A stretch of 39,862 nt of DNA. Source: an uncultured Treponemataceae bacterium. GTDB lineage: Bacteria > Spirochaetota > Spirochaetia > Treponematales > Rectinemataceae. This document shows positions 1,875 through 35,426 of this stretch, one piece after another (the stretch's first letter is position 1; every line of letters starts with the position of its first letter). Below the pieces are notes generated by a model. It saw nothing but the letters and a program-made list of their open reading frames with translations. It was not told the DNA's origin and ran no database searches. Position numbers and translations under genes: made by a program. Location of the stretch: assembly GCA_964654405.1 (NCBI GenBank), contig CAZZJJ010000001.1:1-39862 (forward strand). Reading direction: 5' to 3'.

Positions 1875-2951
1875 ATGCAGATAAAGGCTGATGGACAGAC
1901 ATACGCGCCGAGGGGCATGGTATCTCCAGTCTGTGAACCGGGAACATTCAAGATAGGCGTAATCGGACTGGATCATGGGCATATCTATGGCATGTGCAAC
2001 GGGCTGGTTGAAGCTGGGGCAGAAATAGCATGCGTCTATGATAACGAAAGAATGAAAATGGATGCCTTTTGCAAGGTGTTCCCGGATGCAAAAAAGGCTG
2101 AGAGCGAACATGAGATTCTCGAAAATCCTGATATCGCGCTTGTCGCTTCTGCAATTCTTCCTGACAGACGCACAGAGCTCGGTATTCGCGTCATGAAAGC
2201 TGGAAAGGATTATTTCTGCGACAAACCGCCCTGCATCACAAAGCAAGATGTTTCCCAGGCGAGAAGAGCGGTCGAGGAAACTCAAAAAAAGTTTGCCGTG
2301 TATTACAGCGAGCGGCTCCATGTTGAAGCTTCTGTCTGTGCGGAAAAGCTCATTAAGGACGGCGCGATTGGGCGGGTAATTCATGTAGCGGGGTGGGGTC
2401 CTCATCGAATCAGTATTCCGCAGCGCCCGTCCTGGTTTTTTGATAAAGCGCGATATGGCGGAATTCTTGTCGATATTGGATGTCACCAAATAGAACAGCT
2501 GCTTTTTTTCTGCGGAGCTTCCGATGCCGTCATTTCTTCGAGCAGGGCCGGGAATTATAAATACAAGCAATATCCGCGCTTTGAAGATTTCGGTGACGCA
2601 GCCTTGCTGATGAACAACGGCACAACAGGATATTTCAGCGTCAACTGGTTTACACCTGATGGTCTTGGAGCTTGGGGCGACGGAAGGACTTTTATCCAGG
2701 GCACCGAAGGGTATATTGAATTGAGGAAGTATATAGATGTCGCAGCAGACCCGGAAGGAGATCATGTTATCCTGGTGAATAATAAAGGAGAACAGCATAT
2801 TCATGCTGCCGGAACTTGCGGTTTTCCGTTTTTCGGCAGGCTGATAAAGGACTGTCTTGAAAGGACATCGACAGCCTATGATCAGGAACTGACCTTCAGG
2901 GCGATTGAACTTGCCATTGAGGCAGAGACACAAGCGACAGCAGTGCAATGA
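1875..2951 (+). CDS. Gfo/Idh/MocA family NAD(P)-dependent oxidoreductase
   Basis: N-terminal Rossmann stretch KIGVIGLDHGHIYGM. Length and overall pattern fit the family. Start uncertain: ATG 1875 has no SD, and in-frame ATG 1917 follows GAGGGG too closely. Confidence 0.8.
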   Translation: MQIKADGQTYAPRGMVSPVCEPGTFKIGVIGLDHGHIYGMCNGLVEAGAEIACVYDNERMKMDAFCKVFPDAKKAESEHEILENPDIALVASAILPDRRTELGIRVMKAGKDYFCDKPPCITKQDVSQARRAVEETQKKFAVYYSERLHVEASVCAEKLIKDGAIGRVIHVAGWGPHRISIPQRPSWFFDKARYGGILVDIGCHQIEQLLFFCGASDAVISSSRAGNYKYKQYPRFEDFGDAALLMNNGTTGYFSVNWFTPDGLGAWGDGRTFIQGTEGYIELRKYIDVAADPEGDHVILVNNKGEQHIHAAGTCGFPFFGRLIKDCLERTSTAYDQELTFRAIELAIEAETQATAVQ

Positions 2952-4036
2952 AAGCAATTGAAAGAAACAAGCTGATTCGATTTTCAGCGCGCATTTTCAT
3001 GGCATGCGGGGTGCCGGAACAGCAAGCATTTGAGCAATCTATGGTCCTGGTGGCTGCCGATGCGCGAGGCATCCCATCGCATGGAATAGCCAGGCTTCCG
3101 CGTTATGTCGCTGGGCTCCAGCAGGGATCGATGATTCCAAACATCCAGCCTGAGGCAATAAAGGAAACACTGGTTTCCTTATTGGTTGACGCCAGAGGCG
3201 GACTTGGAGCGCCGGTCAGTATTGCAACCATGAAAAAAGTGATAGAAAAAGCTGAGCTGGCAGGAATGTCTTTTGCTGCTGTCAGAAACTCGAATCATTT
3301 CGGCATTGCAGGATATTACGCCATGATGGCGCTGCCGCATGACATGATTGGCATGGCCATGACCAATACCGCGGCGCTTGGAGTTCCGACACATGCAAGG
3401 CAGGTTATGTTCGGGACTAATCCTATCGCCTTTGCTGCTCCGGCGTTTGAAGAAAAGGCCTTTGTCCTGGATATGTCAACAACTGCGGTGACACGGGGAA
3501 AGATAGAGGTTTTTGCAAGGCTCGGAAAGCCCTTGCCGAGAGGCTGGGCAGTAGACCGGGATGGAGCTCCGGCGGGCAACGCGAACGCCTTGCTTGATGA
3601 TATGCTGCATCGAAGCGGCGGTGGGCTTGTCCCGCTCGGCGGTGATGATGAAATACATGCCGGATATAAAGGCTATGGTCTGGGTGTGATGGTCGATATT
3701 CTGACAGGAGTGTTGTCCGGAGGGCTTTTCGGACAGCAGGTCGCCGATACTGAAACGACTTCAGCCCGGGTGAGTCACTGCTTTGCAGCGATGAAAATCG
3801 ATATGTTTCAAAAGCCGGAAGAATTCAAAAAAAGCATGGATAGCATGCTGAAGGCGCTGCGTACCGCGGAGCCGGCGAGAGGCAAAGCCCGTGTCTATTA
3901 CGCGGGGCAGAAAGAGTATGAGGCTGAAGAAGAAGCCTCGAAATTCGGCATAAAGATTGATGACACAACCTTTCGCATTCTCACCGATCTCGGAAAAAAA
4001 TTCGATATAAACCCCGAGGATCTTTTGTTTCATTGA
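2948..4036 (+). CDS. Ldh_2 family (malate/L-lactate/sulfolactate/ureidoglycolate-type) 2-oxoacid oxidoreductase
   Basis: Family signatures GIPSHGIARLPRY, NSNHFG, FGTNPIAFAAP, GYKGYGL. ATGA overlap with the upstream gene. Confidence 0.85.
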   Translation: MKAIERNKLIRFSARIFMACGVPEQQAFEQSMVLVAADARGIPSHGIARLPRYVAGLQQGSMIPNIQPEAIKETLVSLLVDARGGLGAPVSIATMKKVIEKAELAGMSFAAVRNSNHFGIAGYYAMMALPHDMIGMAMTNTAALGVPTHARQVMFGTNPIAFAAPAFEEKAFVLDMSTTAVTRGKIEVFARLGKPLPRGWAVDRDGAPAGNANALLDDMLHRSGGGLVPLGGDDEIHAGYKGYGLGVMVDILTGVLSGGLFGQQVADTETTSARVSHCFAAMKIDMFQKPEEFKKSMDSMLKALRTAEPARGKARVYYAGQKEYEAEEEASKFGIKIDDTTFRILTDLGKKFDINPEDLLFH

Positions 4037-4067
4037 CTTCCCCGCCGCTGTATCCTACAGTAAAAAC

Positions 4068-4904
4068 ATGGATAGATTTAAATTGGCCGTCTGCAATGAG
4101 CTTTTTGGAAGCATGGATGCACGAACCTATATCCCGGTTGTTAAAAGATCTGGATATGAAGGAATAGAATTTGCTCCATATACTATCTTCCCTGATTTCA
4201 ATGTTCATCAAGCCAGAAAGAGGGCAGTGGAAATTCACGAGCTACTGAAAGGCGAGGGGCTGGCATTTTCTGGCTTTCATTGGCTTCTTGCATATCCGGA
4301 CGGGATGCATTTGCTCAGTGATAATAGTGATGCGCGGAGAAAAGCATGGGATCATCTGAAGCTTCTCTTTGAACTTTCTTTTGAATTCGGCGGGGGGACT
4401 TTGGTTCTCGGCTCACCCAGGCAAAGAACAATTCCTGATAACACGGAAAGAAATTCAGCGATACGCCGATTTATCGATGAAATGGTTTTTTTCATCGAAT
4501 CGATTGAGGGAAGTAAATCAATGCTGCTTATTGAAGCGCTGTCGCCCGATCAGACCAATTTTATCAACACTCTCCAAGAAGCCGCCGAACTGGTACAACA
4601 GATTGATTCCACATATTTTCAAACCATGTTCGATTTTCACAACGCAAGAGATGAGAAGCAGCCATGGGACAAACTGATCGAAGAGCATTTTAAATGTATC
4701 AAACATATTCATATCAACGAAATTGATGGCGGCGCCCCCGGTACTGGAAAATCAGAGTACCGGAACGCATTTTCAGCAATAAAAAAACTTCGGTATGAAG
4801 GCTGGATCAGCATGGAAGTTTTCACAACTCCTGCCGATCCGGAGCGATACATAAGCGCTGCGCTCCAATTTCAAAAAAAGATTTTTCATCTGGTTGAAGA
4901 ATAA
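4068..4904 (+). CDS. Sugar phosphate isomerase/epimerase, xylose-isomerase-like TIM barrel
   Basis: Pattern of putative metal ligands typical of the AP_endonuc_2 fold: LLIEAL, FDFHN, HIHINE, SMEVF. Confidence 0.8.
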   Translation: MDRFKLAVCNELFGSMDARTYIPVVKRSGYEGIEFAPYTIFPDFNVHQARKRAVEIHELLKGEGLAFSGFHWLLAYPDGMHLLSDNSDARRKAWDHLKLLFELSFEFGGGTLVLGSPRQRTIPDNTERNSAIRRFIDEMVFFIESIEGSKSMLLIEALSPDQTNFINTLQEAAELVQQIDSTYFQTMFDFHNARDEKQPWDKLIEEHFKCIKHIHINEIDGGAPGTGKSEYRNAFSAIKKLRYEGWISMEVFTTPADPERYISAALQFQKKIFHLVEE

Positions 4905-4918
4905 GGAGGAATAAAACT

Positions 4919-5962
4919 GTGAAATTCGGCATAATCGGTACTGGTCTCATTGCGGAATTCCATGCCAGGGCATTGTCAGAGATTAAAGGAGCCGAACTAG
5001 AAGCCTGTATGGATGTCAATTCTGAACGGGCAGCTGGTTTTGGGGCAAAGTATCACTGCACATCATATAACTCCATTGAGCATTTTTTGAAGCATCCAAG
5101 TCTTGAAATTGTCACGGTTTGTACGCCGTCAGGACTGCACCGCGATATGGCAGTAGCCGCTGCCCATGCAGGAAAACATGTAATCGTTGAAAAGCCACTT
5201 GAAATTTCGACGGAACGATGCCAGCAAATAATTGACGCCTGTAAAAAGAATAATGTTGTTCTTTCAGGTATTTTCCCATCTCGATTTTTCAGCGCTGCTT
5301 CAACGGTAAAGAAAGCCGTCGATGCTGGACGTTTTGGAAAACTAACCATGGGGACAGCTTCAGTAAAATGGTGGCGTGAACAAAGCTATTACAGTACGGG
5401 AGGATGGAAAGGGACGAGAAGCCTTGATGGAGGCGGAGCACTCATCAATCAATCTATTCATGCCATAGATCTGCTGCTCTGGTACATGGGCGATGCCGAA
5501 GAAGTGTACGCTTGCATGGATACAAGCGCCCACAGCGGAATCGAAGTTGAAGATAATGCCGTTGTTGCGGTGCGATTCAAAAATGGTGCTATCGGAACAA
5601 TCCATGGTTCGACTTCGGTCTGGCCGGGCTTTTTAAAGCGTCTGGAGATATCCGGTACCGCTGGAAGTGCCATTCTTGAAGAGGAAAATCTGACATTCTG
5701 GAAATTCAAAGAAGAAAATCCGGATGACGAATACGTGAGAAAGCAATTCGCTGGCGCGACACATACAGGCGGGGGAGCCTCCGATCCTGCGGCCATCAGC
5801 CACCACGGACATAAACTTCAGTTTCTGGATATCATCGACGCAATTCAGAATAACCGGGAACCATTGATAGACGGCGAAGAAGCCATGAAAGCGGTAAGGC
5901 TTATTGAAGCTGCTTACAGAAGCGCTGAGCTGGACAAGCCGGTTTCCCTAGGAGAAATGTAG
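4919..5962 (+). CDS. Gfo/Idh/MocA family oxidoreductase
   Basis: MKFGIIGTGLIAEFHARAL Rossmann start, VIVEKPL motif. GTG start preceded by AAGGAGG. Confidence 0.9.
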   Translation: MKFGIIGTGLIAEFHARALSEIKGAELEACMDVNSERAAGFGAKYHCTSYNSIEHFLKHPSLEIVTVCTPSGLHRDMAVAAAHAGKHVIVEKPLEISTERCQQIIDACKKNNVVLSGIFPSRFFSAASTVKKAVDAGRFGKLTMGTASVKWWREQSYYSTGGWKGTRSLDGGGALINQSIHAIDLLLWYMGDAEEVYACMDTSAHSGIEVEDNAVVAVRFKNGAIGTIHGSTSVWPGFLKRLEISGTAGSAILEEENLTFWKFKEENPDDEYVRKQFAGATHTGGGASDPAAISHHGHKLQFLDIIDAIQNNREPLIDGEEAMKAVRLIEAAYRSAELDKPVSLGEM

Positions 5963-5963
5963 C

Positions 5964-6866
5964 ATGATCCTCTCAGGTTTCGCCGACGAGGCTGGCGACA
6001 GCCTGGATGAACAGATAGCAGTAACGCGAGAGCTTGGCTGGCGCTATGTCGAGCTTCGCTCCATTGACAGAAAAAACGTTCTTGATCTTGACGACAAGGC
6101 CTTTAAGCAATGCGCAGACAAGTTGACAAAAGCAGGCATCAAGGTCAATTGCCTTGGCTCAAATATTGCCAATTGGGGAACTTCAATCAACGATGATTTT
6201 GCCGCGACAGAAAAGACCGTTGATCGGGCAATTAAAAGAATGAAGTTGCTCGGAACTGAAATGATCAGGATCATGAGCTATGCCATTCTTTTCGGATCGA
6301 ATGGAAAGCCGCTTGCCGATCAAAGAGCTGAAGAGCGAATCCGGAGACTTAAAATCATCTGTTCCAAGTTTGCAGATGCAGGAATAACCTGTGTGCATGA
6401 AAATTGCCTTAATTATGGCGGAATGAGTTTTTCCGCCACCCAGCAGCTGCTTGATGAGATTCCGCAGCTCATGCTGCTTTTCGATACCGGAAATCCCTGT
6501 CTGACTCCGGATTTTTCCAAGCCGGAACCTTGGCCTAATCAGAATCCTTTTGAGTTTTGGAAGCTTTTTTCTCCCCGCATACGGCATGTGCATATCAAGG
6601 ATGGTTGGCGCAATCCAACTACTGGCAAGGAAGAATATTTCATGCCTGGAGAAGGTCCCTGCAAGCTCGAACAAATTCTCGAGACGATACTCAAAGCTGG
6701 CTATCAAGGTGCTTTTACCATTGAACCTCACATAGCTGTGGTCTACCACAATCCTTCAGTGCAAAGTTCTTCAAAACAAAGGAAAACGATGTATATCGAA
6801 TTTGCACGAAAATTTGAAACAATGATGAGCAAGCTGGAATACCGGGAGGAACATGGAAGCCTGTAA
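5964..6866 (+). CDS. Sugar phosphate isomerase/epimerase, xylose-isomerase-like TIM barrel
   Basis: N-terminal LSGFADE, then VHENC, LFDTGN, HVHIKDG, FTIEPH ligand-like pattern. The start lies 1 nt after the upstream stop. Confidence 0.8.
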   Translation: MILSGFADEAGDSLDEQIAVTRELGWRYVELRSIDRKNVLDLDDKAFKQCADKLTKAGIKVNCLGSNIANWGTSINDDFAATEKTVDRAIKRMKLLGTEMIRIMSYAILFGSNGKPLADQRAEERIRRLKIICSKFADAGITCVHENCLNYGGMSFSATQQLLDEIPQLMLLFDTGNPCLTPDFSKPEPWPNQNPFEFWKLFSPRIRHVHIKDGWRNPTTGKEEYFMPGEGPCKLEQILETILKAGYQGAFTIEPHIAVVYHNPSVQSSSKQRKTMYIEFARKFETMMSKLEYREEHGSL

Positions 6867-8073
6867 AGACCTGAGGCTGACAAACTGCAAAATTCTGACT
6901 CCCTTTGAGATGCTGGAAGAGGGATCCATAACCATCACGGAAGGAAAAATTGCAGAGGTCAATCGGGGAATTAGCGAAGAATCCGGCAGCCTGAAAACTC
7001 TGGATATGCGCGGAGCATTGGTCATTCCCGGGTTTGTCGATCTGCACTGCCATGGCGCTCTTGGCGAAGATTTCATGAGCGCAAGCGAAGAAGCGGTGCA
7101 AAAGGCCGCCTGGTTTCACCTCCAGCATGGGACGACAAGCCTTCTTCCAACCTCACTTTCTGCCCCGCTTCCAGCCATCCTTTCAATGCTGAAAACCATG
7201 CAAAGTGCCATGCAAAAAGGAACGGTGCCGAATCTGGCCGGTGTCCATATCGAAGGCCCATATCTTTCTGAGCTTCAATGCGGCGCTCAGGATACCCGCT
7301 ACCTTAAAAATCCCGATCCAGAGGAATACTATAAAATACTCGAATTTTCTTCAATAATTCGGCGATGGACAATTGCCTGCGAGCTGCCCGGGGCTTTGGA
7401 ACTGGGGAGAATCCTTGCGCGGCTGGGTATACTTCCTTCGATTGGCCACAGCAATGCGCAGTATTCAGAAGTCGTCGAAGCGGTCTCTTCCGGATTCAGG
7501 CTCGTCACCCATCTATATTCAGGGACTTCTCTGGTGACGCGGAAACGCGGAATTCGCTATCCAGGGGTTGTGGAAAGTACCCTTCTGCTCGATACCCTCG
7601 CCGCCGAGATCATTGTCGATGGTATGCATCTTCCAGAAGCCCTGGTTCAGCTGGTGTTTAAAATCAAGGGCGCAGACAATGTCATCATGGTTACCGACGC
7701 GATGGCTGCCGCCGGCATGGGAGATGGTATATATCGACTTGGCGATGCTGAGTCCGGGCAGGATGTCAGCGTGCATGACGGTGTCGCATGGACATCTTCC
7801 GGGGAAGCTTTTGCGGGGAGCATAGCGACAGCTGATCATCTGCTGCGAAAGGCTGTGCTCTGGGCAGGGATATCTTTGAAAGATGCTGTCACCAGTCTTT
7901 CGGCAACGCCTGCGAAGCTTGCAGGAATTTATAAGCGGACTGGAAGCATAGAGCCGGGGAAAGACGCTGATATTTTAATTCTGGATGACAACCTTGAAAT
8001 TCTTATGGTTATCGCAAAAGGCCGCATCGTGGGTTCTGGAGGCTCCTATGGCAGTATATCCTCTTCATTTTGA
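6853..8073 (+). CDS. N-acetylglucosamine-6-phosphate deacetylase-like amidohydrolase (NagA family)
   Basis: GFVDLHCHG (HxH), HIEGPYL, IGHSNA, THLY, IIVDGMH, MVTDAMAAAG match the NagA ligand layout. GGGAGG RBS. 14-nt overlap with the upstream gene. Confidence 0.8.
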   Translation: MEACKDLRLTNCKILTPFEMLEEGSITITEGKIAEVNRGISEESGSLKTLDMRGALVIPGFVDLHCHGALGEDFMSASEEAVQKAAWFHLQHGTTSLLPTSLSAPLPAILSMLKTMQSAMQKGTVPNLAGVHIEGPYLSELQCGAQDTRYLKNPDPEEYYKILEFSSIIRRWTIACELPGALELGRILARLGILPSIGHSNAQYSEVVEAVSSGFRLVTHLYSGTSLVTRKRGIRYPGVVESTLLLDTLAAEIIVDGMHLPEALVQLVFKIKGADNVIMVTDAMAAAGMGDGIYRLGDAESGQDVSVHDGVAWTSSGEAFAGSIATADHLLRKAVLWAGISLKDAVTSLSATPAKLAGIYKRTGSIEPGKDADILILDDNLEILMVIAKGRIVGSGGSYGSISSSF

Positions 8074-9091: not shown

Positions 9092-9114
9092 TATCAAATG
9101 CAAGGAGAATACTT

Positions 9115-10188: not shown

Positions 10189-10196
10189 AATTTTCC

Positions 10197-11717
10197 TCAG
10201 GCTGCACGCTTGAGCGAGTTTTTCAGCTTCGCTAGCGCGGTTTTATACCATTTCGCCCGTGTCACTACAATCAGCAAGGTCAGTACAAAGAGAATGAGAC
10301 AGATAGGACGGGTAAAGAACGGCGCAATACTGCCATTTGACAATATGAGAGCTCTCCTGAGATTCTTATCCAGAATATCACCGAGAATGATGCCAAGTAC
10401 AAGCGGAGCCATTGGATAATCCATTTCTCGGAGAATGAAGCCTAATATTCCGAATACCAGCATCACCAGAACATCGAACAGCCTGGCTTGAAGGGCAAAG
10501 GAACCAATAACACACAGCAGGAAAATTACAGGCATCAGCTTCTGCCGTGGAACCATCAGCACTTTAACAAGCGGCCGTACAAGCGAAAGTCCCAAAACGA
10601 ACATCGCAATCGTAGCGAGGAGCACCATCGCGATGACTTCATAGATAAAAGTCGGGAACTCGATCATGATGAGAGGTCCGGGACGAACGCCATGGATCAG
10701 CATCGCGCCTAGCAATACAGCAGCAGGTGCGGAACCCGGGATGGCAAGCGTGAGCACAGGGATTATGGCGCCTGGAACACAGGCATTGTTGCCTGTCTCG
10801 GCAGCGAGCAATCCTTCTATTGAACCCTTTCCAAATTGCTCCTGATCTTCTTTTTTTGCGCTTCGCTTCGCTATGTCATAGGAAACCCATGCTGCAATAT
10901 CTTCACCAACTCCAGGAATTGCTCCAATAAAAGTGCCAATAATGCCTGAGCGCAGAATAGTCTTCCAGTATTTCAATACATCGCGCGGGCGGGGCAAAAC
11001 CCTCGAAATTTTTGTTTTGACAACCTCATAATGCTCGACACGCATGACAGAAATAATTTCAGCAAAACCAAAGGCTCCGACCATCGCCGGGATGAGCGAA
11101 ATGCCTCCAGAGAGATCGGTATTGCCAAAAGAAAAACGCACATAGGCATGGATTCCTTCCATACCGATCATGGCAATAAAGAGACCGAGAAAGCCTGAAA
11201 TCCATCCTTTGAGCGGATCCTTCGGCGCAGTCAGATTGCCGCAGATGATGATGCCAAAGATAGAGAACCAGACAAATTCGAATGATTGAAAGCTCAAGGC
11301 AACTGAGCCGATTAGCGGTGTAAAAATAGCGAGAGCGAGCATTCCGATGACAGAACCAAGAAATGAGCCTGTTGTGGCAATACCGATCGCTTCTCCAGCC
11401 CTTCCTTGCTTTGCAAGCGGGTATCCATCTACTGTTGTTGCAGCGTTCGCTGGTGTACCGGGGATGTTGAGCAGGATGGCGCTTCTGCTGCCGCCATAAA
11501 TAGCTCCGATATACATGCAAATGAGAATGAGAATAGCGTTATTGGGAGCCATGCTGAAGGTAAGGGTTGTGAGCAAAGCTACACCCATGGTAGCTGTCAA
11601 ACCAGGCAGCATCCCGATGATTATGCCAAGCTGTGTCGCCCATAATGCGTCAAATAAAGAGCGAGGATTGAGAAAACCAAGGAGCGCGTTTGAAAACATT
11701 TGCAGGCCTTGTAGCAT
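10197..11717 (-). CDS. tctA: Tripartite tricarboxylate transporter large permease (TctA family)
   Basis: 506-aa polytopic membrane protein with TctA-like blocks (GMLPGLTATMGVALL, IPGTPANAAT, GAIPGVGEDIAAW). AAGGAG RBS. Follows tctC and tctB. Confidence 0.9.
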   Translation of the reverse strand: MLQGLQMFSNALLGFLNPRSLFDALWATQLGIIIGMLPGLTATMGVALLTTLTFSMAPNNAILILICMYIGAIYGGSRSAILLNIPGTPANAATTVDGYPLAKQGRAGEAIGIATTGSFLGSVIGMLALAIFTPLIGSVALSFQSFEFVWFSIFGIIICGNLTAPKDPLKGWISGFLGLFIAMIGMEGIHAYVRFSFGNTDLSGGISLIPAMVGAFGFAEIISVMRVEHYEVVKTKISRVLPRPRDVLKYWKTILRSGIIGTFIGAIPGVGEDIAAWVSYDIAKRSAKKEDQEQFGKGSIEGLLAAETGNNACVPGAIIPVLTLAIPGSAPAAVLLGAMLIHGVRPGPLIMIEFPTFIYEVIAMVLLATIAMFVLGLSLVRPLVKVLMVPRQKLMPVIFLLCVIGSFALQARLFDVLVMLVFGILGFILREMDYPMAPLVLGIILGDILDKNLRRALILSNGSIAPFFTRPICLILFVLTLLIVVTRAKWYKTALAKLKNSLKRAA

Positions 11718-11727
11718 TGATTGCTCC

Positions 11728-12249
11728 TTATGGCAGATTCACGAGGAACACATAACGAAATGTTCCAGCAATTACAGCTGTCGCCACTACTGCGATAATG
11801 AAAGCGATAAAGATTTTCTTTAACTGTGATTGAAAGCTTTTTTGCCAATCAAATTCAAATGCGACAATAAAAAGGAAAATATAGATTACCGTAAGCGCGG
11901 GAAACCAGATTTTCCCGAGCAGCAGCGCATATCCAAGGCAGAGAGCCAGTGTAATTATGATTCTCCGTGTCGCGACATCACGGAAGAAATTAGAAAACGA
12001 TGATTTAGTTGGCAGCAAAGGGAGCCCTGTTTTTTTTATGCGGGCTACAGAACGTATTAGCATGAAAAAACTCAATACTGCGAGCACCGCTCCAATAAAT
12101 GCAGGCACTAGGCCTGGTGCGGAGTAGATAGTTGCCTCTTTTTCCGCCATGGTCGGCATCGAGAGTGAAATCGCTACTATCAGAATACCAAACACGATAA
12201 GGATGATTGAAGCGAAAAAATCGCTCTTCACCATGGTTTTTTCCTGCAT
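11728..12249 (-). CDS. tctB: Tripartite tricarboxylate transporter small permease (TctB family)
   Basis: 173-aa protein with four hydrophobic segments, positioned between the tctC and tctA homologs. GGAGAA RBS. Confidence 0.75.
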   Translation of the reverse strand: MQEKTMVKSDFFASIILIVFGILIVAISLSMPTMAEKEATIYSAPGLVPAFIGAVLAVLSFFMLIRSVARIKKTGLPLLPTKSSFSNFFRDVATRRIIITLALCLGYALLLGKIWFPALTVIYIFLFIVAFEFDWQKSFQSQLKKIFIAFIIAVVATAVIAGTFRYVFLVNLP

Positions 12250-12273
12250 GATGTTTCTCCGAAAGAATTGAGT

Positions 12274-12301
12274 AGGGGCTGCTGGAAAAGCGGCAGCCCC
12301 T
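12274..12301 (-). promoter_or_regulatory. Strong intercistronic stem-loop between tctC and tctB
   Basis: AGGGGCTGC (12274-12282) pairs perfectly with GCAGCCCCT (12293-12301), extendable by 2 bp, with a 6-nt loop. No clear U-tract on the minus strand. Confidence 0.5.
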
Positions 12302-12309
12302 GGTTGCTG

Positions 12310-13323
12310 CTATGGTTTCGGTATTCCAACAGTGTCCGGCGAGACTTTTGCTTTGCCTGCTTCATAATAGAGCCAGGCAACCGGTTGGTAATAGCTGAAA
12401 GCTCGATCTTGAGCTGTCTGTCCGTAGGATGGCGCGAACAATGCGCCGCGGCTGCGCGCGTATTCTTTTATTTTCTGTGAATTGAAAATGATTTTTTCCC
12501 ACAGAGCGCTGACCGTGTCGATCACTTCCTGCGGTACACCCTTTGGAATGAAAATTCCGAAATAATTCGGACCGCTCTTGAAATCCTTAATCCAGTTCGT
12601 GATTGGGGCGATTTCTCCATAACCTTCAAGATAGAGCGGTTTATCGGACAGAACTGCGAGAGGACGGATTTTCTTTCCTCGGATCATGTCTGCCTGTTCA
12701 ACAGCCAGCTGGGTAGTAACCTGCGCTTCTCCGGAAACAGTCGCAATAACTGCCGGGTTGCCGCCATCATAGGTAACGTGTTTGTATTCAATACCTGTGA
12801 ATTTTCTGATCATTTCTATCCCGATATGGCCGGCTGAGCTCTGGCCTGCTGTCGCGACCGCAATCTGTCCCGGTTTGGCCTTGAATGCGGCGAGCAGTTC
12901 ATCGATGGTTTTGTACGGTGTGTTGGCGTTGACTCCGACAATGCTGACATTTGCTACACTCAGGAAAATGTGCCAGTCTGTTCGGATATCGGTATCGAGC
13001 ATGCCTTGCACTTTATAGGTAGCAAGATCCGCAGCCGCACCAGCTGTCCATGTGTAGCCATCCTTTTTAGCGTCAAGCGTATTCTTCGTTCCGACTGAAC
13101 CGGAAGCGCCAGGCTGGTTTACGATGACTATCTTCTGGCCAAGAGCTGTTTCAAGTTCAGCTGCGGTTATGCGGGTAATCTGATCAGTTGAGCCTCCAGC
13201 TCCCCACGGCACGATAATAGTAATCGGCTTATTGGGTTTCCATGTTGCCTGTGCGCTGACACCAACGGTGATTATACACAGTGCGAGAATCGCGATGAGC
13301 AAAGAGCCTGCTGTCCTTCTCAT
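12310..13323 (-). CDS. tctC: Tripartite tricarboxylate transporter substrate-binding protein (TctC/Bug family)
   Basis: Signal peptide (LLIAILALCIITVGVSAQA). Bug-family block IIVPWGAGGSTDQITR. GGAGG RBS. Confidence 0.9.
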   Translation of the reverse strand: MRRTAGSLLIAILALCIITVGVSAQATWKPNKPITIIVPWGAGGSTDQITRITAAELETALGQKIVIVNQPGASGSVGTKNTLDAKKDGYTWTAGAAADLATYKVQGMLDTDIRTDWHIFLSVANVSIVGVNANTPYKTIDELLAAFKAKPGQIAVATAGQSSAGHIGIEMIRKFTGIEYKHVTYDGGNPAVIATVSGEAQVTTQLAVEQADMIRGKKIRPLAVLSDKPLYLEGYGEIAPITNWIKDFKSGPNYFGIFIPKGVPQEVIDTVSALWEKIIFNSQKIKEYARSRGALFAPSYGQTAQDRAFSYYQPVAWLYYEAGKAKVSPDTVGIPKP

Positions 13324-13388
13324 AGAATGCCTCCTTCAAAATACTTAGATAAAAAGAAGTATAGGAGCCGTGAATATTCGCTGTCAAG

Positions 13389-13421
13389 GAAAATATTTAC
13401 CATCTTGAGAAAAATATTTTC
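13389..13421. promoter_or_regulatory. Perfect 10-bp inverted repeat in the divergent tctC / SDR control region (candidate operator)
   Basis: GAAAATATTT (13389-13398) and AAATATTTTC (13412-13421) are exact reverse complements separated by 13 bp. Confidence 0.35.
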
Positions 13422-13441
13422 AACGTGAGCAAGGTGGTTTC

Positions 13442-14302
13442 TTGACAACTGCAGTGCAAGGAAGCATGCTTGATGTCATGGATGGAATGAATACGATGAC
13501 GATAAGTCCGCGGATAGCTCTTGTAACCGGCTCAAGCAGGGGCCTAGGCCGAGGTATTGCATTGGAGCTTTCAAGAAATGGGTATTCCGTAGCAATACAC
13601 TATTCCGAAAACAAGGATGCGGCGTTCGAAACGCTGCGTCTCTGCGGAATAAGCAAAATTAATTCACTGCAGAAGTTTGAAATATTCAAAGCGGACATAT
13701 CAAGCAAAAAAGATCGGCATCGCCTGATCGATGCTGTCCTTGAAGCAATGGGGTCAATCGATGTGCTGGTAAACAATGCCGGCCGCGCGCCGGACAAACG
13801 CGCTGATATCTTGATTGCTTCTGAAGAAAGTTTTGAAAAATTGCTGTCAGTCAACCTGGAGGGGCCATATTTTCTAACACAATATCTTGCGCAGCGGTGG
13901 ATGGAAAAAGCAAGCGATTTTGAAGCAACTCAATCTGAAAAGAATTGCAAAATAATCATCTTTGTAACGTCCATTTCCGCGGAGACAGCTTCAACGGGCA
14001 GAGGAGAATACTGCATTTCGAAAGCCGGACTTGCCATGGCAGCAAAACTTTGGGCTGCGCGGTTGGCAGAATCAGGAGTGCAGGTTTTTGAAATCAGACC
14101 AGGCATCATGGATACCGATATGACGAGAGCCGTGCATGATACCTATGAACTGCGTATCAGCCAGGGGTTGGTCCCGCAAAAGCGGTGGGGAATACCCGAG
14201 GATGTCGGAAAAGCAGTTGCTGCTTTGGCATCAGGGAACTTTGGTTTTTCTACCGGAAGCGTTATCCATGTTGATGGCGGTTTTCATATATCTCGGCTTT
14301 AG
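13442..14302 (+). CDS. Classical SDR family oxidoreductase (FabG/KduD-like)
   Basis: ALVTGSSRGLGRGIA (TGxxxGxG), NNAG, YCISKAG (YxxxK), PGIMDTDM. Start uncertain: TTG 13442, with in-frame ATGs at 13466, 13487 and 13496. Confidence 0.85.
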   Translation: MTTAVQGSMLDVMDGMNTMTISPRIALVTGSSRGLGRGIALELSRNGYSVAIHYSENKDAAFETLRLCGISKINSLQKFEIFKADISSKKDRHRLIDAVLEAMGSIDVLVNNAGRAPDKRADILIASEESFEKLLSVNLEGPYFLTQYLAQRWMEKASDFEATQSEKNCKIIIFVTSISAETASTGRGEYCISKAGLAMAAKLWAARLAESGVQVFEIRPGIMDTDMTRAVHDTYELRISQGLVPQKRWGIPEDVGKAVAALASGNFGFSTGSVIHVDGGFHISRL

Positions 14303-14310
14303 GGGGAGCG

Positions 14311-15717
14311 ATGATTTCAATTTCCTCGAATCATGACTTTTTACATTTAAAAGAAAAAATCCGGCGTTTTTTTGAAATGGCCGGAGTGAAAACATTGAAC
14401 CTGGCCGGACGGTGGGAAGGTATTCAGGGAGCCCCAGTCTATACTGTCAACGGCATCTATACTCAGCGCGGGTGGACAGATTGGACTGAAGGATTTCAAT
14501 ACGGCAATGCGATTCTTGTCTATGAATCAACTCATGATCCCCGGCTTCTCATGTACGCCCGCAGGAAAACCCGTGAAAAAATGGCGATTCATGTCAGCCA
14601 CACAGGAGTTCATGACCATGGATTCAACATCATGAGTACCTACGGGAACCTCCTCAGGCTGTCGCGCACAGGTTTGATAGATGCGGATGCATGGGAGAAA
14701 GAATATTATCTGCTTGCAATCAAACTATCGGGTGCAGTGCAGGCCAGCAGATGGACAAGCCTTCATGAGAAACTAGGTTATATTTACTCGTTCAACGGAC
14801 CTCATTCTCTTTTCGCGGATACAATTCGGTCGCTCAGAGTGCTTGGCGCAAGTCATCTTGCGGGGCATTACCTCAAAGCTGAGCAGGATGAGACAATAAA
14901 TCTTTTAGAACGATTGCTGGCCCATGCCGAAACAACCGCCCGATATATTGTGTTTGAAGGGAAAGGGCGAGATCGCTGGGATGTCAGAGGGCGGGTAGCC
15001 CATGAGGCGATTTTCAACCCGGTGAATGGAAGTTATAGATGCCCTTCTTCTCAGCAAGGCTATTCAGCTTTTACTACATGGACCCGGGCATTGGCATGGA
15101 TCATTCTCGGTTTTGCCGAAGAACTCGAGTTTGTTTCTATGCTTCACGAAGATGCCATTCAATCGCTCGAACTTCCTTTCGTAAAGACAAAGACCGAGAT
15201 TATTCAACGGTTTACGGAGGTCACTCGAGCATGCGCTGATTATTTTATTGAGAACACAGCGCCGAACGGCATCCCGTACTGGGATACCGGAGCTCCGAAT
15301 CTCCATAAGCTGGGCGATTATCTCATAAAAAATCCAGACCCCTATAACCCTTGGGAACCAGTCGATTCATCTGCAGCTGCTATTGCCGCCCAAGGCTTGC
15401 TTCGGCTTGGACTGTTTTTAAAAGAGCGGCAGCTTGCTGACGCTGAAAAATATCTTGGATGTGCAATCACCATATCACAAACCTTGTTCTCCGATGAATA
15501 TCTATCCTTGGATGAACAGCATGAAGGATTGCTCCTGCATGCGGTGTATCATGTTCCCAACAATTGGGACAACCCATCGAGCAAATCCTCTTTGCCAGCT
15601 GGCGAATCTTGCATGTGGGGAGATTATCATATTCTGGAACTGGCTCGATGTATTCAACAGATGAATTCCGGCATCAATCCATCACGCTTTTTTGATGGCA
15701 TTTTGGAGGCGGACTGA
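14311..15717 (+). CDS. GH88-like (unsaturated glucuronyl hydrolase family) alpha/alpha-barrel protein
   Basis: WTDWTEGFQYGNAIL, GVHDHGFN and ESCMWGDYHILELA resemble the WxxGFWxG, HDxGF (catalytic Asp) and DYYFLEA signatures I recall for GH88/GH105. GGGGGAG RBS. The protein is longer than the roughly 380-aa enzymes I remember. Confidence 0.6.
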   Translation: MISISSNHDFLHLKEKIRRFFEMAGVKTLNLAGRWEGIQGAPVYTVNGIYTQRGWTDWTEGFQYGNAILVYESTHDPRLLMYARRKTREKMAIHVSHTGVHDHGFNIMSTYGNLLRLSRTGLIDADAWEKEYYLLAIKLSGAVQASRWTSLHEKLGYIYSFNGPHSLFADTIRSLRVLGASHLAGHYLKAEQDETINLLERLLAHAETTARYIVFEGKGRDRWDVRGRVAHEAIFNPVNGSYRCPSSQQGYSAFTTWTRALAWIILGFAEELEFVSMLHEDAIQSLELPFVKTKTEIIQRFTEVTRACADYFIENTAPNGIPYWDTGAPNLHKLGDYLIKNPDPYNPWEPVDSSAAAIAAQGLLRLGLFLKERQLADAEKYLGCAITISQTLFSDEYLSLDEQHEGLLLHAVYHVPNNWDNPSSKSSLPAGESCMWGDYHILELARCIQQMNSGINPSRFFDGILEAD

Positions 15718-16535
15718 TGCGCGATCTTGCAGATATGGCTATCCACACAATAACAACGAAGCCTTGGAAGCTTGATACTGCATTGGAGAAATACGCACAA
15801 GCTGGCATTACGGGTGTCTCTGTATGGAAGGAATCGCTGGAAGGCTTTACGCTGCCGGAAGCCCGCTCATTGCTTGAAACTTCTGGGCTGAAAGTTGTCT
15901 CGTTGGTTCGCGGAGGGTTTTTCCCTGCGTCCAGCCTGGCTCAACGGATGAAAAAGGTTGAAGAAAACAAGCAGCTTATCGATACTGCGACAGCGATTGG
16001 CGCTCCTCTGATAGTATTAGTTTGCGGAGCTGATCCCGGTATTCCGCTCCAGGAGGCGCGAAAGCAGATAGAAGAAGGCATTGCCCAGATTCTTCCTTAT
16101 GCAGAAGATAAGCATATAAAGCTTGCCATTGAGCCGCTGCATCCCATGTATGCTGATGCACGCAGTGCCATCGTAACAATCAGGCAGGCGCATGAGCTGT
16201 GTATTAAATTCGATAGCAAAAGCCTTGGTATTGCCGTGGATGTGTATCATGTTTGGTGGGATCCAGATCTCGAATACCAGATTGAGAAGGCTGGAGAATC
16301 AAATTCGATTTTCGCCTTTCACGTCTGTGACTGGAAGACACCTACATTGGACATGTTGAATGATCGCGGGCTCATGGGAGAAGGGTGCATCCCAATCCGA
16401 ACTATCAGACAGTGGGTCCAAAAAGCCGGCTTCTCCGGATTCAATGAAGTGGAAATCTTTTCAAACCGTTATTGGAGCATGGATCAAGATCAGTATTTGT
16501 CAATGATAGTCAAAGCTTATGAGGAGCATGTATGA
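15717..16535 (+). CDS. Sugar phosphate isomerase/epimerase, xylose-isomerase-like TIM barrel
   Basis: AIEPLHPMY, VDVYHVWWD, FHVCDW, EVEIFS ligand-like pattern. TGATG overlap with the upstream gene. GGAGG RBS. Confidence 0.8.
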   Translation: MRDLADMAIHTITTKPWKLDTALEKYAQAGITGVSVWKESLEGFTLPEARSLLETSGLKVVSLVRGGFFPASSLAQRMKKVEENKQLIDTATAIGAPLIVLVCGADPGIPLQEARKQIEEGIAQILPYAEDKHIKLAIEPLHPMYADARSAIVTIRQAHELCIKFDSKSLGIAVDVYHVWWDPDLEYQIEKAGESNSIFAFHVCDWKTPTLDMLNDRGLMGEGCIPIRTIRQWVQKAGFSGFNEVEIFSNRYWSMDQDQYLSMIVKAYEEHV

Positions 16536-17689
16536 AAGAGACAACTATCGGAATAATCATGAATGGCGTCACAGGCAGAATGGGCACCAATCAGCATCTG
16601 GAACGTTCAATCATGGCGATACGAAAACAAGGCGGTATCCGTCTCGCAGACGGGAATTATCTTGTCCCTGAGCCAATATTGTGTGGCAGGGATGAAGGCA
16701 AACTTAAAAAACTCGCTGACACGTACGGAATTTCGAAGTATTCAACCCAGCTTGATACCGCGCTTTCTGATCCCTATTATAAAGTCTATTTTGATGCCCA
16801 GGTGACCAACCTTCGCCCTGAAGCATTGCAAAAAGCCATGAAAGCCGGCAAAGCGGTTTATTGCGAAAAACCTACTGCCGGGAGTACCAGGGAAGCTCTG
16901 CAGCTTGCGTCAATGGCTGAAAAGCTGGGGCTGAAGAATGGGGTGGTTCAGGACAAGCTTTGGCTTCCAGGCTTGCGAAAACTCAAATACCTTGCAGACA
17001 CAGGCTTTTTCGGCAGAATTCTTTCGGTGCGCGGGGAGTTCGGCTATTGGGTTTTTGATGGATTTTCGCAACCTGCCCAGCGTCCGTCATGGAATTACAG
17101 GAAGGAAGATGGCGGCGGTATTATCATGGACATGTTCTGCCATTGGCAGTATGTCATTGAGAATCTCTTTGGAAAGATTGACGCTCTTTCCGCGATTGGA
17201 GCTATCCATATTGACAAGCGTGTCGATGAAAACGGCCGGCAATATGCAGCAACAGCGGAAGATGCGGCATATGGTACATTTATGCTGGATAATGGAATAG
17301 TATGCCAATTCAATAGCTCGTGGGATGTCCGTGTCAGGCGTGATGATTTGCTTGTGATCCAGTTGGACGGAACCAGGGGGTCAGCTGTGGCTGGTCTACG
17401 AGAATGTTTTATTCAGGATGAAGCCATGACACCCAAGCCAGTATGGAATCCTGATATTCCCAGCAGTATTGATTATTTTGAAAACTGGGCACGAATGCCG
17501 GATCGACAGCACTACGATAACGCGTTTAAAGTTCAATGGGAAAAATTCCTGCTGCATGTCGCTCAGGATGAGCCGTTTCCCTGGACACTGCGGGAAGGAG
17601 CAAAAGGCGTGCAGCTTGCGGAACTCGGCATGCAGAGCTGGAAAGAAAAAAGGTGGCTATCAGTGCCATCTCTTGCAAGCGAGGAATGA
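16532..17689 (+). CDS. Gfo/Idh/MocA family oxidoreductase (long, about 385-aa subtype)
   Basis: IGIIMNGVTGRMGTNQH Rossmann start, VYCEKP motif. ATGA overlap with the upstream TIM-barrel gene. Confidence 0.85.
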   Translation: MKETTIGIIMNGVTGRMGTNQHLERSIMAIRKQGGIRLADGNYLVPEPILCGRDEGKLKKLADTYGISKYSTQLDTALSDPYYKVYFDAQVTNLRPEALQKAMKAGKAVYCEKPTAGSTREALQLASMAEKLGLKNGVVQDKLWLPGLRKLKYLADTGFFGRILSVRGEFGYWVFDGFSQPAQRPSWNYRKEDGGGIIMDMFCHWQYVIENLFGKIDALSAIGAIHIDKRVDENGRQYAATAEDAAYGTFMLDNGIVCQFNSSWDVRVRRDDLLVIQLDGTRGSAVAGLRECFIQDEAMTPKPVWNPDIPSSIDYFENWARMPDRQHYDNAFKVQWEKFLLHVAQDEPFPWTLREGAKGVQLAELGMQSWKEKRWLSVPSLASEE

Positions 17690-17728: not shown

Positions 17729-17800
17729 AGCGACCGATGGGAGTCGAACCCACGTCTCCAGCTTGGAAGGCTGGGGTAATAGCCGTTATACGACGGTCGC
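17729..17800 (-). tRNA. tRNA-Gly (anticodon UCC), CCA not encoded
   Basis: Folded by hand. Acceptor GCGACCG/CGGTCGC. Anticodon stem CCAGC/GCTGG with loop CTTCCAA (anticodon TCC). T arm GTGGG-TTCGACT-CCCAT. 72 nt. Confidence 0.9.
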
Positions 17801-35328: not shown

Positions 35329-35346
35329 GACGTACCTTTTAACGTA

Positions 35347-35375
35347 TTGATGATGTTCTGACAGCATTCTATGAT
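35347..35375 (+). promoter_or_regulatory. Candidate sigma70-type promoter of ligA
   Basis: TTGATG (35347-35352), 17-nt spacer, TATGAT (35370-35375). Confidence 0.4.
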
Positions 35376-35394
35376 TGCAGAGGAAATTTTGCAA
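35366..35394 (-). promoter_or_regulatory. Candidate sigma70-type promoter of the NusG-paralog operon
   Basis: Minus strand TTGCAA (35394-35389), 17-nt spacer, TAGAAT (35371-35366). The -10 overlaps the ligA -10 by 2 bp. Confidence 0.4.
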
Positions 35395-35426
35395 TCGTTT
35401 TTGAAAGCCCGAAAGGAGAAGGATGC

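Follow-up and report, generated by a model that had tools for sequence, protein, structure and literature searches.

The 39,862-nt contig of an uncultured Treponemataceae bacterium (GenBank CAZZJJ010000001.1, assembly GCA_964654405.1; "the window" hereafter means this whole stretch of DNA) carries a sugar-acid locus at 1875-17689. It encodes oxidoreductases, xylose-isomerase (XI)-like TIM barrels, a protein of the glycoside hydrolase family 88 (GH88) type and a tripartite tricarboxylate transporter (TTT), and we propose that it handles unsaturated uronides. A first-pass annotation, made from the sequence alone, had counted 16 genes; the list of open reading frames (ORFs) gives 15 tightly packed genes (Table 1). 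They form three strand blocks, as that annotation had described, and the intergenic distances of -26 to +60 bp within each block fit three operons. Operon A (+ strand) consists of Gfo1, Ldh_2, TIM1, Gfo2, TIM2, NagA, Epim and DHDPSl; operon B (- strand) consists of TctC, TctB and TctA, which are contiguous and match all three TTT families above the Pfam threshold; operon C (+ strand) consists of the short-chain dehydrogenase (SDR), GH88l, TIM3 and Gfo3. The domain content reported earlier (three Gfo/Idh/MocA proteins, Ldh_2, SDR, an Epimerase-like protein, three TIM barrels, NagA, a DHDPS-like and a GH88-like protein, and TctCBA) was recovered in full with Pfam and NCBIfam. Judged by the lengths of homologues, Epim most likely starts at 8048 and the SDR most likely at ~13466.

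Table 1. Features of the locus and positions in the window.
Feature	Coordinates	Strand	Basis or remark
Gfo1, Gfo/Idh/MocA oxidoreductase, 358 aa	1875..2951	+	Pfam PF01408/PF22725; first gene of operon A; no NCBIfam equivalog
Ldh_2-family 2-hydroxyacid/2-oxoacid dehydrogenase, 362 aa	2948..4036	+	PF02615, 372 bits
TIM1, XI-like TIM barrel, keto-sugar epimerase/isomerase type, 278 aa	4068..4904	+	PF01261
Gfo2, Gfo/Idh/MocA oxidoreductase, probable sugar secondary-alcohol (C3-type) dehydrogenase, 347 aa	4919..5962	+	Pfam
TIM2, XI-like TIM barrel, 300 aa	5964..6866	+	PF01261; NCBIfam matches weak
NagA-type N-acetylglucosamine-6-phosphate deacetylase, 406 aa	6853..8073	+	TIGR00221, 256 bits vs cutoff 225.65
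Epim, atypical extended SDR (Epimerase-like), ~347 aa	8048..9091 (listed ORF start 7985)	+	PF01370, E 5e-9
DHDPSl, DHDPS-like, 357 aa	9115..10188	+	PF00701, 27.5 bits vs cutoff 22.1
Terminator-like hairpin between convergent DHDPSl and tctA	10196..10214	.	Consensus scan; weak candidate
TctA, TTT large permease	10197..11717	-	PF01970, 470 bits
TctB, small membrane subunit of TTT	11728..12249	-	PF07331
TctC, predicted periplasmic binding protein of TTT, signal-like N-terminus	12310..13323	-	PF03401
Putative sigma-70-like promoter TTGACA-18-TATACT, upstream of tctC	13358..13387	-	11/12 consensus matches; best-scoring site of the region
SDR, classical short-chain dehydrogenase, PRK12745 family	13442..14302 (likely start ~13466)	+	NF009386, 305 bits vs cutoff 250
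GH88l, divergent GH88-type (alpha/alpha)6 putative enol-ether hydratase, 468 aa	14311..15717	+	UGL profile match
TIM3, XI-like TIM barrel, 272 aa	15717..16535	+	PF01261, 131 bits
Gfo3, Gfo/Idh/MocA oxidoreductase, 385 aa	16532..17689	+	Pfam

Domain scans detected no kinase, phosphotransferase system (PTS) component, lyase, sulfatase or DNA-binding regulator in the locus, in agreement with the first-pass annotation, or in the whole 39.9-kb contig, and no Eda gene was found elsewhere on the contig either. The description of the locus as kinase-free holds for the version present in the window.

Next, the gene neighborhood was compared with those of relatives from genomes and metagenome contigs (labelled L###). 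DHDPSl neighborhoods were counted over 88 loci and GH88l neighborhoods over 53 metagenome loci of at least 7 kb. The neighborhood is conserved across genomes: the full gene order recurs in metagenome contigs at 87% (L001/L002) and 80% identity (L006). At ~60% identity, a 12-gene version without Gfo1, Ldh_2 and NagA was found in L008, and a 10-gene version, Gfo1-Epim-DHDPSl / TctABC / SDR-GH88l-TIM3-Gfo3, in L095 and in L009, a Treponemataceae metagenome-assembled genome (MAG). The parts are rearranged in L119, which reads SDR(-), GH88l-TIM3-Gfo3-TctC-TctB-TctA, then DHDPSl(-), Epim(-), and in L158, which reads SDR-GH88l-TIM3-Gfo3 ... PfkB-DHDPSl. Among Alphaproteobacteria, the Sneathiella operon is TctC-TctA-TctB-TIM1-enolase-like-Epim-DHDPSl-Gfo3-DUF993-TIM3, the Nitratireductor pOM-1 operon is TctC-TctA-Gfo-TctB-TIM1-'mandelate racemase'-Epim-TetR-DHDPSl, and the Paroceanicella operon is TctCBA-TetR-TIM1-enolase-like-Gfo3-DUF993-TIM3. 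The enolase-superfamily protein of these operons, for which NCBIfam gave no subtype, takes the 'entry' position held by SDR-GH88l in spirochaetes. We concluded that Epim + DHDPSl, SDR + GH88l, TIM3 + Gfo3, TIM1 and an orthologous TctCBA are independently conserved cassettes, which recur together in varying order in Spirochaetota and Alphaproteobacteria. The locus had been portrayed as a single unit built around the transporter; since each piece is also found alone, and the cassettes are solitary in hundreds of genomes, it is rather a mosaic of cassettes that can stand on their own. That they co-occur again and again in differing arrangements argues for a functional link between them, and their grouping does not look accidental. 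The absence of a regulator is correct for the window but is not a general trait: AraC, LacI or TetR genes flank the cassettes elsewhere, so this feature is lineage-specific.

The cassette families are widespread. Both the GH88l and the DHDPSl family have at least 8000 relatives by protein search; GH88l was found in at least 587 metagenome loci, and DHDPSl, by profile, in at least 597 species genomes of many phyla at 50-59% identity. Together the two families cover Spirochaetota, Planctomycetota, Verrucomicrobiota, Acidobacteriota, Bacteroidota, Bacillota, Alphaproteobacteria and Bathyarchaeia. A plasmid search with GH88l gave one record, from Chondrinema. No assigned function was found for any of the cassette families.

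The AlphaFold model of GH88l (pLDDT 86, pTM 0.92) has unsaturated glucuronyl hydrolases (UGLs) as all of its 11 best PDB fold matches, the best being 1vd5 (E 8e-16, target-normalised TM 0.83), and the GH88l family profile matches UGL with E 1e-17. Some homologues carry a precomputed PF07470 assignment, and a 51% identical homologue is named 'glycoside hydrolase family 88 protein' in PGAP. UGL D88 and D149 align with D102 and D170 of GH88l, and UGL W42, H193, Q211, W219, R221, W225, Y338 and H339 with W58, H231, Q249, W257, R259, W263, Y413 and H414; all of these positions are invariant among the 24 members of the family alignment. The mapping was upheld by the motifs HHD[IM]GF and IIDC, which are present in two annotated GH88 proteins from Paenibacillus and Agrobacterium vitis plasmids. 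As the reference we used a Bacillus sp. GL1 UGL sequence which we take to be correct; it fits the printed match segments, the length and the numbering, and it finds GH88 genes over its full length. We also assume the residue roles, namely that D88/D149 are the catalytic pair, that R221 binds the uronate carboxylate and that the others line the -1 subsite. Given the UGL fold and the full set of catalytic and -1 subsite residues, GH88l is predicted to be a 4,5-unsaturated uronyl hydratase, and it is very probably a true enol-ether hydratase acting on such a residue.

The SDR gene adjoins GH88l in 42 of the 53 loci; the counts for Gfo3 and TIM3 are 27 and 19. In 13/53 loci GH88l is accompanied by a divergent AraC gene, and in L090 and L091 the four-gene SDR-GH88l-TIM3-Gfo3 cassette stands alone behind an AraC or LacI gene. 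PfkB kinase genes occur in nine of the GH88l loci, and the five that were scanned have models of 2-keto-3-deoxygluconate (KDG) or 2-keto-3-deoxygalactonate (KDGal) kinases as best matches, below the cutoffs. Eda-like aldolase genes occur in three, and both of those scanned are above the TIGR01182 cutoff; one operon, in L120, reads PfkB-Eda-SDR-GH88l. The presence of these kinase and Eda genes beside the cassette suggests that its product is most likely a KDG/KDGal-type acid. The SDR itself gave no functional lead in a PDB sequence search, in which the matches were remote or were structural-genomics entries without function. A flavin oxidoreductase of ~490 aa resembling Old Yellow Enzyme (OYE) lies beside SDR-GH88l in seven loci (L099, L104, L109, L131, L153, L162, L168), mostly directly 3' of GH88l (e.g., L131 2434-3921), and has no counterpart in the window; a possible role for it is that of an ene-reductase on an unsaturated keto-acid.

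TctA is 79-84% identical in spirochaete loci and 59-66% identical in alphaproteobacterial loci with the same partner genes. TctC is 72-84% identical in spirochaete loci and 43-53% identical in the syntenic loci of Alphaproteobacteria; an unlinked paralogue in L007 reaches 32%. This difference points to an orthologous transporter across the phyla, and thus probably to a related ligand. A signal peptide was predicted on TctC; the enzymes of the locus have none. TTT systems usually carry small carboxylates. Aldarate and glucarate transport by TTT systems is cited in a study of Vibrio sp. C42, whose own TTT binds unsaturated alginate oligosaccharides with nM affinity and whose growth on alginate is severely impaired by deletion of that system (PMC13390454, 2026). 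The Vibrio system is a precedent for the import of an unsaturated uronide by TctCBA of the window. If our reading is true, the locus would be a second, testable example of a TTT whose cargo is oligosaccharides and not small tricarboxylates.

K182, Y154 and T60 of DHDPSl do not vary within the family and, in the alignment, correspond to the Lys that forms the Schiff base in DapA and to its catalytic Tyr and Thr. The AlphaFold model (pLDDT 90.6) has a TIM-barrel fold that is equidistant from DapA, HOGA and NanA (target-normalised TM ~0.8-0.88). Membership in DapA or NanA proper was not borne out: no NCBIfam family matched, PDB phmmer matches had E of at least 0.009, and GTTGE is replaced by VHTTQF. 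A profile search of PDB showed no specific similarity to solved KDG aldolases and did not retrieve KdgD. By sequence and model, DHDPSl is placed on a separate branch of the DHDPS/N-acetylneuraminate lyase (NAL) class I aldolase superfamily. By analogy, its role could be an aldolase-type cleavage or, equally possible, that of a KdgD-like dehydratase/decarboxylase. Epim lies directly upstream of DHDPSl in 76 of the 88 loci, often in a bare two-gene operon. In the Epim family (the window protein and 55 homologues, L005-L088) GxxGxxG, Ser149 and Tyr176 are kept but the Lys of YxxxK is not, and a conserved Arg-Glu-Arg ('RER') is found seven residues past the Tyr. A PDB sequence search with Epim gave no functional lead, and no relation to solved uronate dehydrogenase (Udh) structures was detected.

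The genes near the Epim-DHDPSl pair include acid-sugar dehydratases of the enolase superfamily (L005, L175 and L043, the MR_MLE protein of L005 being adjacent to the pair), a heparinase II/III-like lyase (L088; with an ABC transporter in a Paenibacillus), sulfatase genes, and a GH78 rhamnosidase with RhaA in a Lentisphaerae MAG. The lyase, rhamnosidase and sulfatase contexts fit uronate-containing glycans but are heterogeneous. In a census of the neighborhoods, no strongly recurrent partner of the pair was found beyond the named cassettes. A GNAT acetyltransferase gene lies directly upstream of the pair or inside its operon in five Acidobacteriota loci (L017, L049, L053, L055, L076), in Tistrella (L176 7011-7835) and in Paenibacillus (L025 6282-7451). 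Our favored model does not explain this neighbor, which hints that the substrate of the pair may be amino or acetylated in some lineages.

TIM3 and Gfo3 are paired across phyla. Gfo3 is 56-73% identical across phyla, with GH88l/SDR, DUF993 or DHDPSl as partners, and lies within 10 kb of DHDPSl in 9 of the 88 loci. The nearest PDB entries of TIM3 are 7vpf, 3qc0 and 3ju2 (E ~1e-68), and Gfo3 matches 3oqb (E 3e-151), a structural-genomics entry without function; a literature search found no published function for 7VPF, 3OQB, 3QC0, 3JU2 or SMc04130. A 149-aa single-domain cupin replaces TIM3 between GH88l and Gfo3 in four loci (L121 6793-7239, L136 2608-3072, L137 10478-10927, L172 11316-11801). 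By analogy with the cupin isomerase KduI, this suggests a non-homologous isofunctional replacement. In Proteobacteria the usual partner of Gfo3 + TIM3 is DUF993 (PF06187, 576-618 bits; 'DHDPS family' in PGAP), with TetR and TTT or MFS genes alongside (for example L093 12348-13514, L094 10156-11334, L059 1876-3042); a literature search gave no paper mentioning DUF993. DHDPSl and DUF993 showed no similarity in hhalign, so the two DHDPS-like partners of Gfo3/TIM3 are not interchangeable orthologues.

Gfo2 has the WlbA UDP-GlcNAcA 3-dehydrogenases 3q2k (E 5e-52) and 3q2i (E 2e-42) as nearest PDB entries, followed by DgpA (E 5e-31), levoglucosan dehydrogenase and the glucuronide-3-dehydrogenase 8tdi (E 3e-23). 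TIM1 matches an IolO-like model at 90 bits, below the cutoff; its nearest PDB entries are TM0416, tagatose/psicose 3-epimerases and YcjR, and a TIM1-like gene follows the TTT genes in L043, L094 and L175. The L008 orthologues of Gfo2 and TIM2 are 60% and 50% identical, respectively. Taken together, Gfo2, TIM1 and NagA suggest 3-keto epimerisation and deacetylation of a released sugar. The distribution of Gfo1, NagA and Ldh_2 is patchy. A 65% identical homologue of Gfo1 lies directly upstream of Epim-DHDPSl in L009 and L095 and is absent from L008. NagA is confined to the lineage of the window, L001 and L006, and is absent from every relative below ~78% identity. Ldh_2, whose best NCBIfam match is L-sulfolactate dehydrogenase (220 bits, cutoff 500), was seen in the closest relatives only (L001). 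In L006 it is split into fragments of 117 and 49 aa (3113-3572), a pseudogene or an assembly error, which suggests that it is dispensable for the locus. The possibly N-acetylated substrate put forward in the first-pass annotation did not hold up well: Ldh_2 and NagA occur only in the closest relatives and Gfo1 in few, so the N-acetyl part rests on lineage-specific additions, and the suggested conversion of the released sugar is the least secure part of the reading.

Combining these results, we propose a three-operon catabolic locus whose cassettes converge on a 4-deoxy-5-keto-uronate / 2-keto-3-deoxy sugar acid. Lyases of other community members would make the unsaturated substrate. TctC would bind an oligosaccharide (probably a disaccharide) whose non-reducing end carries a 4,5-unsaturated uronic acid, and TctAB would import it. 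In the cytoplasm, GH88l would hydrate the enol ether, giving 4-deoxy-5-hexosulose-uronate and the remaining sugar. The SDR, TIM3 and Gfo3 would reduce and/or isomerise the keto-uronate to a 2-keto-3-deoxy-hexonate of the KDG/KDGal type, doing the work of KduI/DhuI and KduD/DhuD. DHDPSl, in place of KdgK + Eda, would form a Schiff base through K182 and cleave or dehydrate the 2-oxo acid, and Epim would reduce or oxidise the aldehyde product, comparable to the aldolase and glyceraldehyde reductase of the fungal galacturonate route. The lineage-specific Gfo1, Ldh_2, TIM1-Gfo2-TIM2 and NagA would act on the remaining sugar, which may be N-acetylated, through 3-keto epimerisation and deacetylation. 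2-Oxo-3-deoxy (4-deoxy-5-keto) sugar acids are the products of enolase-type acid-sugar dehydratases as well as of GH88 enzymes, and this shared product type is the common denominator of the model. An acidic glycoside or sugar-acid substrate, as had been suggested before, is very probable given the orthologous TTT, the uronate-binding Arg in GH88l and the partner enzymes for 2-keto-3-deoxy acids elsewhere. The locus had also been said to share only 2-4 components with the route for disaccharides from glycosaminoglycans (GAGs); this understates the likeness to the unsaturated-uronate (GAG/pectin) route, since GH88l has an intact UGL site and, in other genomes, KdgK-type kinase and Eda genes are linked to the cassette. 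The Gfo and SDR enzymes, taken earlier as signs of an oxidation-driven route, may equally act as reductases.

Taken as a whole (TTT import of an unsaturated uronide, ring opening by the GH88-type enzyme, non-orthologous isomerase/reductases and kinase-free Schiff-base processing), we give this model a probability of about 45%. Several results weigh against it. GH88l is ~21% identical to UGL, is ~90 residues longer and falls below the Pfam PF07470 threshold (22.6 vs 26.6 bits). The SDR is not a KduD orthologue, with 125 bits against a cutoff of 339 (KduD models give ~120-125 bits). Transporters beside the GH88l cassette elsewhere are often of the SSF or MFS types. Most Epim-DHDPSl pairs are solitary or in unrelated contexts (GNAT, Nramp-like, TetR genes), so their substrate may be broader than a uronate product, and the KDG-kinase-like gene directly before DHDPSl in L158 makes it less likely that the pair stands in for the kinase route. 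As the contig is only 39.9 kb, other parts of the genome could encode a kinase and Eda. Gfo3 and TIM3 make up a classic pair for oxidation followed by enolisation, in keeping with the oxidative alternative considered next, and no published function was found in the literature for close homologues of the locus enzymes.

In that alternative a saturated acidic glycoside would be cleaved oxidatively, without hydrolysis, in four steps: oxidation, elimination, hydration and reduction. A Gfo protein would form a 3-keto-glycoside, a TIM-barrel lyase would convert it to a keto-glycal, GH88l would act as the glycal hydratase in place of DUF1080, and the SDR would reduce the keto-sugar. The four-gene cassette holds one candidate enzyme for each of these four steps, the locus has three Gfo proteins paired with XI-like TIM barrels, and the scheme explains why no lyase is needed. 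Moreover, Gfo2 resembles DgpA, levoglucosan dehydrogenase and the glucuronide-3-dehydrogenase 8tdi, TIM1 resembles the 3-keto-glucoside 4-epimerase YcjR, and GH88 chemistry, the hydration of a ring enol ether, is the same type of reaction as glycal hydration. Both the pathway and the classes of enzyme that it uses have been described (10.1101/2024.03.25.586180; PMC10628242; PMC7676230). However, none of the Gfo proteins of the locus comes near the NCBIfam cutoffs for LgdA and BT_2158/2159, and TIM3 is not detectably close to known eliminases, its PDB neighbors having no assigned function. The known systems are periplasmic, whereas the locus enzymes lack signal peptides. The full UGL -1 subsite, including the carboxylate-binding Arg, favors a 4,5-unsaturated uronyl residue over a 1,2-glycal, and SDR-GH88l often occurs without Gfo or TIM genes, directly with KdgK-type kinase and Eda genes (L120, L108, L109). 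We consider the oxidative route unlikely.

A second alternative, to which we also assign a low probability, is that the TTT imports a monomeric sugar acid such as an aldarate, a uronate or a 4-deoxy-5-hexosulose-uronate (DEH/DHU). TIM1, Epim, DHDPSl, Gfo3 and TIM3 would then be the monomer pathway, with the 2-keto-3-deoxy acid made by an enolase-superfamily dehydratase in the alphaproteobacterial operons, and SDR-GH88l would be a separate feeder, either joining at an intermediate further down or acting on a different substrate. In Sneathiella, Nitratireductor and Paroceanicella the operons couple the orthologous TTT with core parts in the absence of GH88l and SDR, L003, L004 and L007 consist of Epim-DHDPSl and TctABC only, and the acid-sugar dehydratase of L005 adjoins Epim-DHDPSl. 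TTT systems, classically for small carboxylates, include those for aldarate and glucarate cited in the Vibrio paper (PMC13390454). On the other hand, in every Spirochaetota case the GH88l cassette adjoins this TTT or is divergent from it (window, L006, L008, L009, L095, L119), the window has no enolase-type dehydratase, and a TTT binding protein for unsaturated oligosaccharides has precedent.

It is quite improbable that the locus is a chance or loosely selected juxtaposition of three independent sugar-related operons with unrelated substrates. Each cassette is solitary in most genomes, Epim-DHDPSl is a bare pair in many of the 88 loci, DHDPSl is found in only 3 of the 53 GH88l loci, and Gfo1, Ldh_2 and NagA come and go among relatives. 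But the combination recurs at ~60% identity with rearranged orders (L008, L009/L095, L119, L158), the core genes are found together again in Alphaproteobacteria, beside an orthologous transporter, and the frequency of Gfo3 within 10 kb of DHDPSl (9/88) is far above the expectation for single-copy genes in multi-Mb genomes.

We regard as very improbable a cyclitol (inositol-type) or amino-sugar-acid pathway unrelated to uronates, whether through inosose chemistry or through an N-acetyl-hexosaminuronate or oxidised chitin product with NagA as deacetylase. IolG, IolO and IolE are the best NCBIfam matches for several Gfo and TIM proteins, Gfo2 resembles UDP-GlcNAcA 3-dehydrogenases, and NagA lies within the operon. 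The Iol matches are sub-threshold and far below cutoff (IolG at most 158 bits vs 355), no equivalents of IolD, IolB, IolC or IolJ were found in scans of the window, NagA is missing from relatives below ~78% identity, and such a pathway would leave the intact UGL site and the KdgK/Eda linkage unexplained. Further candidates were rejected: sialic acid or 2,7-anhydro-Neu5Ac (NanA-YjhC), as DHDPSl does not resemble NanA and Gfo2 matches YjhC only distantly; the hydroxyproline route (Pyr4H2C deaminase with an Ldh_2-type reductase) and sulfolactate (ComC with TTT), as Ldh_2 is lineage-specific and the other genes are of sugar type, the ComC model also scoring below half its cutoff; inositol catabolism, as the downstream iol genes are missing; and anhydro-MurNAc or levoglucosan-like oxidation, chemically imaginable but with no supporting evidence.

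Returning to the unsaturated-uronide model, a bolder form of it would be a complete non-orthologous replacement of the textbook unsaturated-uronate pathway in more than 10 phyla. It would comprise the TTT, a deep-branching GH88 clade, an XI-like TIM or mini-cupin isomerase, Gfo and PRK12745-type SDR reductases, and a kinase-free NAL branch with the Lys-lacking extended SDR. We find this form doubtful; if true, four or five enzyme functions would be new, and the use of uronate polymers in anoxic habitats would have a route with a different ATP balance. The proposed chemistry, if correct, would provide an annotation of uronate-polymer scavenging (pectin, GAGs, alginate, ulvan) for thousands of genomes, add a kinase-free branch to carbon-flow models of sediments, digesters and guts, and supply new isomerases, reductases and aldolases for keto-deoxy sugar acids in biocatalysis.

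The locus is flanked on one side by an ABC ATPase gene and a CBS-pair protein gene, and on the other by tRNA-Gly (anticodon TCC; 17729-17800, - strand), directly past the last locus gene, and a V-type ATPase operon. The two-CBS-domain protein (1324-1821, - strand) is encoded divergently upstream of operon A, a position kept in L001 and L006, and is the sole candidate for ligand-responsive control in this regulator-free locus; an Rfam scan for a riboswitch or leader that could replace a regulator found tRNA-Gly alone. A 387-aa ORF antisense to Gfo1 (1794-2957, - strand), low in complexity and rich in Cys/Arg, is almost certainly no gene but a by-product of mechanical ORF finding. The remaining contig holds mainly housekeeping genes, except for an operon of a molybdoenzyme of the xanthine dehydrogenase (XDH) family with three subunits (MoCoBD 696 aa, FAD_binding_5 278 aa, [2Fe-2S] 167 aa; 31403-34804, 34801-35451 and 30639-31406, all - strand), a NusG paralogue upstream and a TP_methylase-like gene after it. 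The subunit pattern resembles what we take to be that of the archaeal glyceraldehyde oxidoreductase in the non-phosphorylative Entner-Doudoroff branch. By this analogy the molybdoenzyme could oxidise the aldehyde from a kinase-free aldolase route; yet it lies 14 kb off with housekeeping genes in between.

Finally, we compared the locus with known systems. Literature searches for the gene combination, and for GH88 with Gfo and an isomerase, found nothing relevant, and the earlier statement that no characterised pathway matches the locus gene for gene stands as far as these searches reach. In the oxidative uronate/aldarate pathway, the enzymes are Udh, Gci (enolase superfamily), KdgD (DHDPS family) and KGSADH. 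The locus likewise brings together an extended-SDR-type and a DHDPS-family protein, joined by an enolase-superfamily protein in L005 and the alphaproteobacterial operons, but Epim is not detectably related to Udh, DHDPSl did not retrieve KdgD and the window has no aldehyde dehydrogenase. The LgdA/B1/B2/C (levoglucosan), DgpA/B/C (C-glycoside) and AL/BT1-4 (Alistipes/Bacteroides) systems share with the locus repeated pairs of Gfo and XI-like TIM proteins and the logic of redox, enolisation, hydration and redox. They differ in that the window has no DUF1080, none of its proteins reaches the curated cutoffs, and its enzymes are predicted to be cytoplasmic rather than periplasmic; it has a GH88-type protein, which none of those systems does. 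The locus of Vibrio sp. C42, compared by its description, is alike in having a TctCBA-type importer within a locus for uronate-polymer utilisation, but it contains lyases and canonical downstream enzymes (PMC13390454), whereas the window has no lyase.

Cleavage of 2-keto-3-deoxy acids in the absence of a kinase is found in the fungal D-galacturonate pathway (2-keto-3-deoxy-L-galactonate aldolase and L-glyceraldehyde reductase) and in the KDG aldolase of the archaeal non-phosphorylative Entner-Doudoroff pathway. Common to these routes and the locus are the DHDPS/NAL fold with a Schiff-base Lys, a paired NAD(P)-binding oxidoreductase and the absence of a kinase; the differences are that DHDPSl of the window forms a separate branch, equidistant from DapA, NanA and HOGA, and that its partner Epim is without the YxxxK lysine. 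The remaining comparison is with the GAG/pectin unsaturated-uronate route (UGL/GH105, KduI/DhuI, KduD/DhuD, KdgK and KdgA/Eda), in which only KduI/DhuI and KduD/DhuD had been described for DHU conversion as of December 2025 (PMC12838403). The two are alike in the GH88 fold with complete UGL residues, the adjacent SDR, the kinase and Eda genes that follow the same cassette in other genomes, and enzymes predicted to act in the cytoplasm after import. They differ in that scans of the window found no cupin/KduI, RpiB-like DhuI, PfkB or Eda, the SDR is no KduD orthologue, import is by TTT rather than PTS or ABC systems, and GH88l is remote from UGL in identity and Pfam score; an XI-like TIM or a small cupin together with a Gfo/Idh/MocA protein sits in the place of the isomerase and reductase. 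Overall, the locus looks like a pathway variant of the known unsaturated-uronate kind, built from widespread uncharacterised families, rather than a new kind of system.

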